NCBI RefSeq assembly: GCF_003334785.1
Contig: NZ_QOWV01000002.1
Strand: one strand, 5' to 3'
Source: Escherichia coli
Lineage (GTDB): Bacteria; Pseudomonadota; Gammaproteobacteria; Enterobacterales; Enterobacteriaceae
DNA: 64,000 bases
Positions 59,329-59,367 of the stretch are shown one piece after another. Numbering within the stretch: position 1 is the stretch's first letter; each line of letters begins with the position of its first letter. The notes beneath the pieces were generated by a model. It saw only the letters and a program-made list of their open reading frames with translations. It made no database searches and was not told the origin of the DNA. The translations under genes and the position numbers were made by a program.

Positions 59329-59367
59329 AGTGTATTGGTAGCTAAAAAGCCAGGGGCGGTAGCGTGT
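59329..59367 (+). promoter_or_regulatory. JUMPstart element with ops (GGCGGTAGCGTG, 59355-59366) in the wza leader; RfaH-dependent antitermination signal
   Basis: Exact ops 12-mer about 180 bp upstream of wza, as known for the colanic acid operon. Confidence 0.6.

Follow-up and report, generated by a model that had tools for sequence, protein, structure and literature searches.

Genomic setting of the wza leader

In the window analysed here, that is the whole stretch of 64,000 nucleotides, the colanic acid locus is organised as asmA (plus strand), yegH (minus strand), a 658-bp spacer and then, all on the plus strand, wza, wzb, wzc and wcaA onwards. The open reading frames and the RefSeq annotation place wza, with which the colanic acid (wca/cps) operon begins, at 59545-60684, wzb at 60690-61133, wzc at 61136-63298 and wcaA from 63391. 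The yegH-wza spacer contains a JUMPstart element, and the polysaccharide cluster wza, wzb, wzc, wcaA-wcaC lies downstream of it.

The 674 bases around this element are 100% identical to those of E. coli strain VE-F10, and most of this stretch is present in 4819 of the 5426 complete E. coli genomes, nearly all of them at ≥95% identity. Compared with K-12 MG1655, only 3 of the 658 bases of the spacer differ (59069, 59071 and 59073), and none of these is close to the element. The ops sequence begins at the base equivalent to position 2137433 of NC_000913.3, minus strand. RefSeq gives no regulatory feature at this place for VE-F10 or for K-12 MG1655, and the remark of the initial annotation that open reading frame annotation misses the element is thus correct.

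The surroundings display some peculiarities of their own. In some RefSeq E. coli genomes, a 49-aa hypothetical protein is annotated antisense to the wza promoter region (L085 501-650, about 59087-59236 of the window, minus strand), and in E. coli strain 14EC017 an IS1 is inserted in the yegH-wza intergenic region. The 92-bp wzc-wcaA spacer harbours a REP-type palindrome, GCCGGATAAGGCGTTCACGCCGCATCCGGC, at 63318-63362, which is a possible internal point of polarity or mRNA stability in an RfaH-controlled operon. Elsewhere in the window, Rfam matches correspond to known E. coli small RNAs: two Sib antitoxin RNAs (43037-43179 and 43366-43514, minus strand, 142 and 149.5 bits) and CyaR (29592-29677, minus strand, 100.7 bits).

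A JUMPstart element ending in an exact ops

The 39-nt JUMPstart CAGTGTATTGGTAGCTAAAAAGCCAGGGGCGGTAGCGTG, as read from the sequence and matched end to end by the Rfam family RF01707, occupies positions 59328-59366 of the plus strand. The initial annotation had assigned it to 59329-59367; the 39-mer was rightly recognised but its coordinates were shifted by +1, since CAGTG begins at 59328 and the last G of ops is at 59366. The alignment with RF01707 covers positions 1-38 of the 38 of the model and reaches 57.3 bits, where the gathering threshold is 35; the E value over the whole window is 1.6e-10.

The last twelve bases of the JUMPstart are the exact ops 12-mer GGCGGTAGCGTG (59355-59366, plus strand), which includes both the 8-nt core GGCGGTAG and the extended 12-mer GGCGGTAGnnTG by which ops membership is assessed. 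It is the sole match in the 64 kb on both strands, even when one mismatch is allowed. None of 100 dinucleotide-preserving shuffles contained the exact 12-mer, and 23 of them contained a match with one mismatch. The ops lies on the non-template strand, in the same orientation as wza-wzb-wzc-wcaA, and starts 190 nt upstream of the wza ATG (59545). With the roles assigned to the individual bases by structural work (PMC5995543), bases 3-8, which form the core of the hairpin contacted by RfaH, correspond to 59357-59362, and the pause dinucleotide T11/G12 to 59365/59366. The RfaH-contact bases C3-G8 and the pause T11-G12 are all intact. The claim of an exact ops is therefore borne out, as is the identification of the whole as an ops/JUMPstart: the 12-mer, the Rfam match, the strand, the predicted leader position ahead of a long surface-polysaccharide operon and a first gene devoid of Shine-Dalgarno sequence all agree with it.

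The upstream half of the JUMPstart could form a 5-bp hairpin, its arms TTGGT (59335-59339) and GCCAG (59349-59353) enclosing the 9-nt loop AGCTAAAAA on the plus strand, according to the structure line of RF01707. Among 53 distinct JUMPstart sequences, these arms are paired in 99.2% of cells, versus 20-60% for slid partners. Most pairs never vary in these sequences and a single compensatory change was observed, in waaQ; support from covariation is thin because the arms are nearly invariant.

The 8-mer core GGCGGTAG is present seven times in the window, whereas shuffles predict 1.46 copies. The six others (23408, 34282, 39582, 40092, 47889 and 58768) are all intragenic and have neither T11-G12 nor the upstream JUMPstart half, and the template strand carries three of them; we rejected them as further ops sites. 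Consistently, ops-like sites within genes have been reported not to recruit RfaH (PMC9765446). The surplus probably reflects codon usage rather than regulation.

Predicted promoter and organisation of the leader

Two nearly invariant blocks precede the JUMPstart by about 200 nt. The first one, 59085-59111 (TTGTCAACC TAAAGAAACTCCTAAAA in the leader alignment), includes the plus-strand sequence TAAAGAAACTCCTA (59093-59106), a candidate RcsAB box singled out by cross-genus conservation. It resembles the RcsAB-box consensus TaAGaatatTCctA, reportedly described by Wehland and Bernhard in 2000. A second, weaker candidate, TAAGAAATATCGCA, is found at 59049-59062 of the same strand. In a text search of papers, the candidate box sequence appeared only in an unrelated yeast paper, and the papers mentioning both 'RcsAB box' and wza gave no coordinates. 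The second conserved block, TTAATATAATTCTTAAAA (59127-59144, plus strand), contains a -10-like TATAAT at 59131-59136. Judging from these sequences, wza transcription would begin close to 59143; the leader would then measure about 400 nt, and ops would fall at about +212. A search for sigma-70-like sites from 59300 to 64000 gave none.

The intergenic region has a G+C content of 30-40%, against 52-60% in its flanks, which fits the H-NS binding reported by Hustmyer et al. (PMC9765446); an AT-rich leader is also what one expects of an RfaH target. Before ops, the leader is C-rich and G-poor (GC skew of -0.36 at 59100-59299), a composition that would favour Rho loading. After ops, an untranslated leader of 178 nt (59367-59544, plus strand, 35% G+C) ends in an initiation region without Shine-Dalgarno sequence: within the 22 nt that lead up to the wza start codon, the best anti-SD duplex is worth only -1.6 kcal/mol, versus -6 to -7 kcal/mol for asmA, wzc and wcaA. 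Operons controlled by RfaH have likewise been described as lacking a ribosome-binding site (PMC6358824).

Besides the JUMPstart, itself a conserved block in the alignment of 80 leaders, and besides the promoter blocks, four leader segments show almost no variation among about 25 genera. The first (59164-59200) lies early in the inferred transcript, two (59390-59410 and 59428-59450) come after ops, and the last (59505-59544, …TGCACAGGATAATTACTCTGCCAAAGTGATAAATAAnCA) fills the ~40 nt leading up to the wza ATG instead of a Shine-Dalgarno sequence. Neither RfaH nor a conserved RNA fold accounts for them. From ops to the ATG, RNAalifold on 16 genera yielded -1.75 kcal/mol with no covarying pair, hence no conserved RNA structure, and the fold of the whole leader is no better than that of shuffles (z = 0.04). 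On this basis a riboswitch-like or attenuator structure was rejected. Nor was an intrinsic terminator found, just after ops or elsewhere in the wza leader. A leader peptide was rejected too, as the plus-strand open reading frames 59120-59302 and 59169-59312 cross regions that are nearly unconserved, and the only match to another Rfam family in the intergenic region, ARRPOF, was considered fortuitous (13.9 bits for a threshold of 127.2).

It is conceivable, though rather unlikely, that ops belongs to a leader of greater complexity. The conserved blocks could then be sites for an undescribed regulator or a sequence for ribosome loading acting with the S10-binding domain of RfaH, or else the JUMPstart could act as an RfaH decoy similar to the small RNA RirA.

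Conservation of the element across Enterobacteriaceae

The leaders were compared in a Wza-anchored scan with one genome per species, which gave 80 Enterobacteriaceae loci spread over about 25 genera; 79 of these loci had upstream DNA. An ops within two mismatches is present at about -190 from the wza ATG in 76 of these 79 species. Among the 76, positions 1, 3-9 and 11 are invariant and position 2 shows one change, while position 10 is occupied by G in 65 species, by A in 8 and by C in 3, and position 12 by G in 73 and by A in 3. This pattern matches mutational and structural data, in which bases 3-8 are those of the hairpin read by RfaH and T11-G12 drive the pause (PMC5995543). The variants observed upstream of wza (…CATG, …CGTA and …CATA) are the same as those of the functional hly and kps ops sites. 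This cross-genus survey thus adds a clean picture of the ops bases that are under selection in vivo.

The three remaining species, Pseudescherichia vulneris and two relatives (L035, L036 and L039, ~2200-2320 in each), display an unrelated sequence instead of the JUMPstart. They have nevertheless retained the promoter blocks, the leader blocks that lie further downstream and the operon, which therefore can evidently persist without the element. This clade represents a natural ops-deletion variant and offers a natural test. As a separate case, Citrobacter amalonaticus (L045, ~2290-2410) carries an insertion of ~118 bp between ops and the ATG, so that its ops is ~308 nt before the ATG.

Recruitment of RfaH to the colanic acid operon

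The JUMPstart of the cps/wza leader has been in the literature since 1994-96. The element is indeed already known: it belongs to a curated Rfam family, and ChIP-seq has demonstrated RfaH binding at precisely this location. In strain CFT073 delta-hns delta-stpA, in which H-NS/StpA silencing is relieved, the wza site GGCGGTAGCGTG, located at -190 in the UTR, is bound by RfaH (Hustmyer 2022, PMC9765446, Dataset S2), and the signal at the wza ops is absent in delta-rfaH (PMC9765446). In the same delta-hns delta-stpA background, a sigma-70 peak upstream of wza accompanies an RfaH signal over wza-wcaM (PMC9765446). Such a signal over the operon implies transcription through ops, because RfaH loads only in this way, and independently supports a start upstream of the element. 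In wild-type CFT073 grown in rich medium, on the other hand, the operon is silent and no RfaH signal is seen (PMC9765446); the requirement for RfaH is therefore conditional. The authors called wza-wcaM a cryptic RfaH-regulated locus (Hustmyer 2022, PMC9765446), and colanic acid has been described as controlled by JUMPstart and RfaH (PMC9976346, PMC3101779, bioRxiv 2025.02.08.637259).

The mechanism of ops has been established in general terms. RNA polymerase pauses at U11, and the non-template strand adopts a hairpin with a C3:G8 stem and a G4-A7 loop (Zuber 2018, PMC5995543). T6 is flipped into a pocket of RfaH, and the ops sequence itself matches the general consensus pause (PMC5995543). RfaH binds this hairpin to the exclusion of NusG, and refolding of the RfaH C-terminal domain allows contact with ribosomal protein S10 (PMC5995543, PMC6358824).

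We are highly confident that this is the JUMPstart/ops site of the colanic acid operon, and that it acts as a DNA signal which the elongating polymerase reads, not one used at initiation. According to this model, RcsAB together with relief of H-NS silencing would start transcription at the wza promoter, at a start site predicted about 200 nt upstream. While transcribing 59355-59366, the polymerase would pause at U11 (59365) and the non-template hairpin would form. RfaH would then board at 59355-59366 and replace NusG on the polymerase, and the complex so modified would resist H-NS roadblocks, Rho-dependent termination and pausing along the ~20 kb of wza-wcaM. Finally, RfaH may help ribosomes to load on the Shine-Dalgarno-less wza. 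As RfaH acts only once the Rcs-dependent, H-NS-silenced promoter has fired, ops would be a requirement of the elongation stage and not the main on/off switch. The element would account for the dependence of the 20-kb colanic acid operon on RfaH besides RcsAB.

Alternatively, or in addition, the element could act at the RNA level, the JUMPstart hairpin and ops forming a short RfaH-binding RNA that would titrate RfaH when the wza promoter fires. The idea is suggested by RirA, a K-12 small RNA (L084 2667-2739) that encloses the waaQ JUMPstart (2683-2721) and is reported to bind RfaH in an ops-dependent manner (PMC6358824), and the pairing compatibility of the JUMPstart hairpin noted above (99.2% of cells) would suit it. 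However, immediately downstream of ops the wza leader shows neither a terminator-like site nor a conserved structure, we found no evidence for a short transcript from it, and structural work puts the recognition of ops on the non-template DNA (PMC5995543). We regard this RNA-level action as improbable.

Very improbable in our view is a second alternative, in which the element would be a conserved pause signal or a relic, colanic acid expression depending materially on Rcs control of the promoter and not on RfaH. The resemblance of ops to the general consensus pause (PMC5995543) and the Pseudescherichia clade, which lost the element and kept the operon and the promoter blocks, could be read in this way. 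Yet the invariant bases 3-8 serve contact with RfaH and not pausing, and the tolerated changes fall at positions 10 and 12. In addition, RfaH is present on the operon during its transcription (PMC9765446), and wza lacks a Shine-Dalgarno sequence like other RfaH operons. A functionless chance match of the 12-mer, for which one could invoke the 23 of 100 shuffles with a one-mismatch match and the six other copies of the 8-mer core, all within genes, has a virtually nil probability, given the absence of the exact 12-mer from all 100 shuffles and the E value of 1.6e-10 for the 39-mer, and is already refuted by the conserved position in 76 of 79 species and by RfaH ChIP binding at the site.

Recruitment of RfaH through the non-template ops thus remains the reading that we retain. 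Its practical value concerns annotation and engineering: promoter-swap constructs should retain 59328-59366, on the wza strand, together with the Shine-Dalgarno-less leader. Beyond this, the loss of JUMPstart in one clade, the unexplained conserved blocks of the leader and the parallel between waaQ and RirA are worth keeping in mind.

Comparison with other JUMPstart and antitermination systems

The closest counterparts are found in K-12 itself. Set against known ops leaders, the wza element (57.3 bits with RF01707) falls between those of rfb (60.0) and waaQ (55.2), both of which share its 3′ 13-mer GGGCGGTAGCGTG. It is therefore no less good a JUMPstart than these two validated RfaH targets of K-12. 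Like wza, the O-antigen operon rfb has in its galF-rfbB spacer a 39-nt JUMPstart with the same hairpin, on the non-template strand and ahead of a long polysaccharide operon. The two differ in spacing, the rfb ops starting 87 nt before rfbB and the wza ops 190 nt before wza, and in promoter control: the rfb promoter is constitutively active, whereas that of wza needs RcsAB and is silenced by H-NS. The leader of waaQ (LPS core) contains the same ops 12-mer as wza and precedes an RfaH-dependent operon that also lacks a ribosome-binding site (PMC6358824). Its hairpin displays a compensatory A:U where wza has U:A, and its JUMPstart is annotated within the 73-nt RfaH-binding RirA, whereas no such RNA is known for wza.

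Other long operons bound by H-NS, such as hly, kps, tra and those of type VI secretion, resemble wza in that RfaH is recruited by a non-template ops in the leader or in an intergenic region (PMC9765446, bioRxiv 2025.02.08.637259). Some of these sites are variants, GGCGGTAGCATG for hly and GGCGGTAGCATA for kps (PMC9765446), with the same changes at positions 10 and 12 as in wza orthologues of other genera. In group 1 capsule loci (K30, Klebsiella cps), a homologous wza-wzb-wzc export module follows a JUMPstart, as it does here (PMC6128206). Their expression is described as constitutive and their JUMPstart is located between galF and wzi, whereas colanic acid is Rcs-inducible and its JUMPstart lies directly before wza.

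More distantly, lambda nut/put and Bacillus EAR/epsC are likewise cis-acting leader signals that render the polymerase resistant to termination over a long operon, often one for polysaccharide synthesis (PMC2864571). These signals act as structured RNA, whereas in the case of ops a NusG paralogue reads the single-stranded non-template DNA (PMC5995543).
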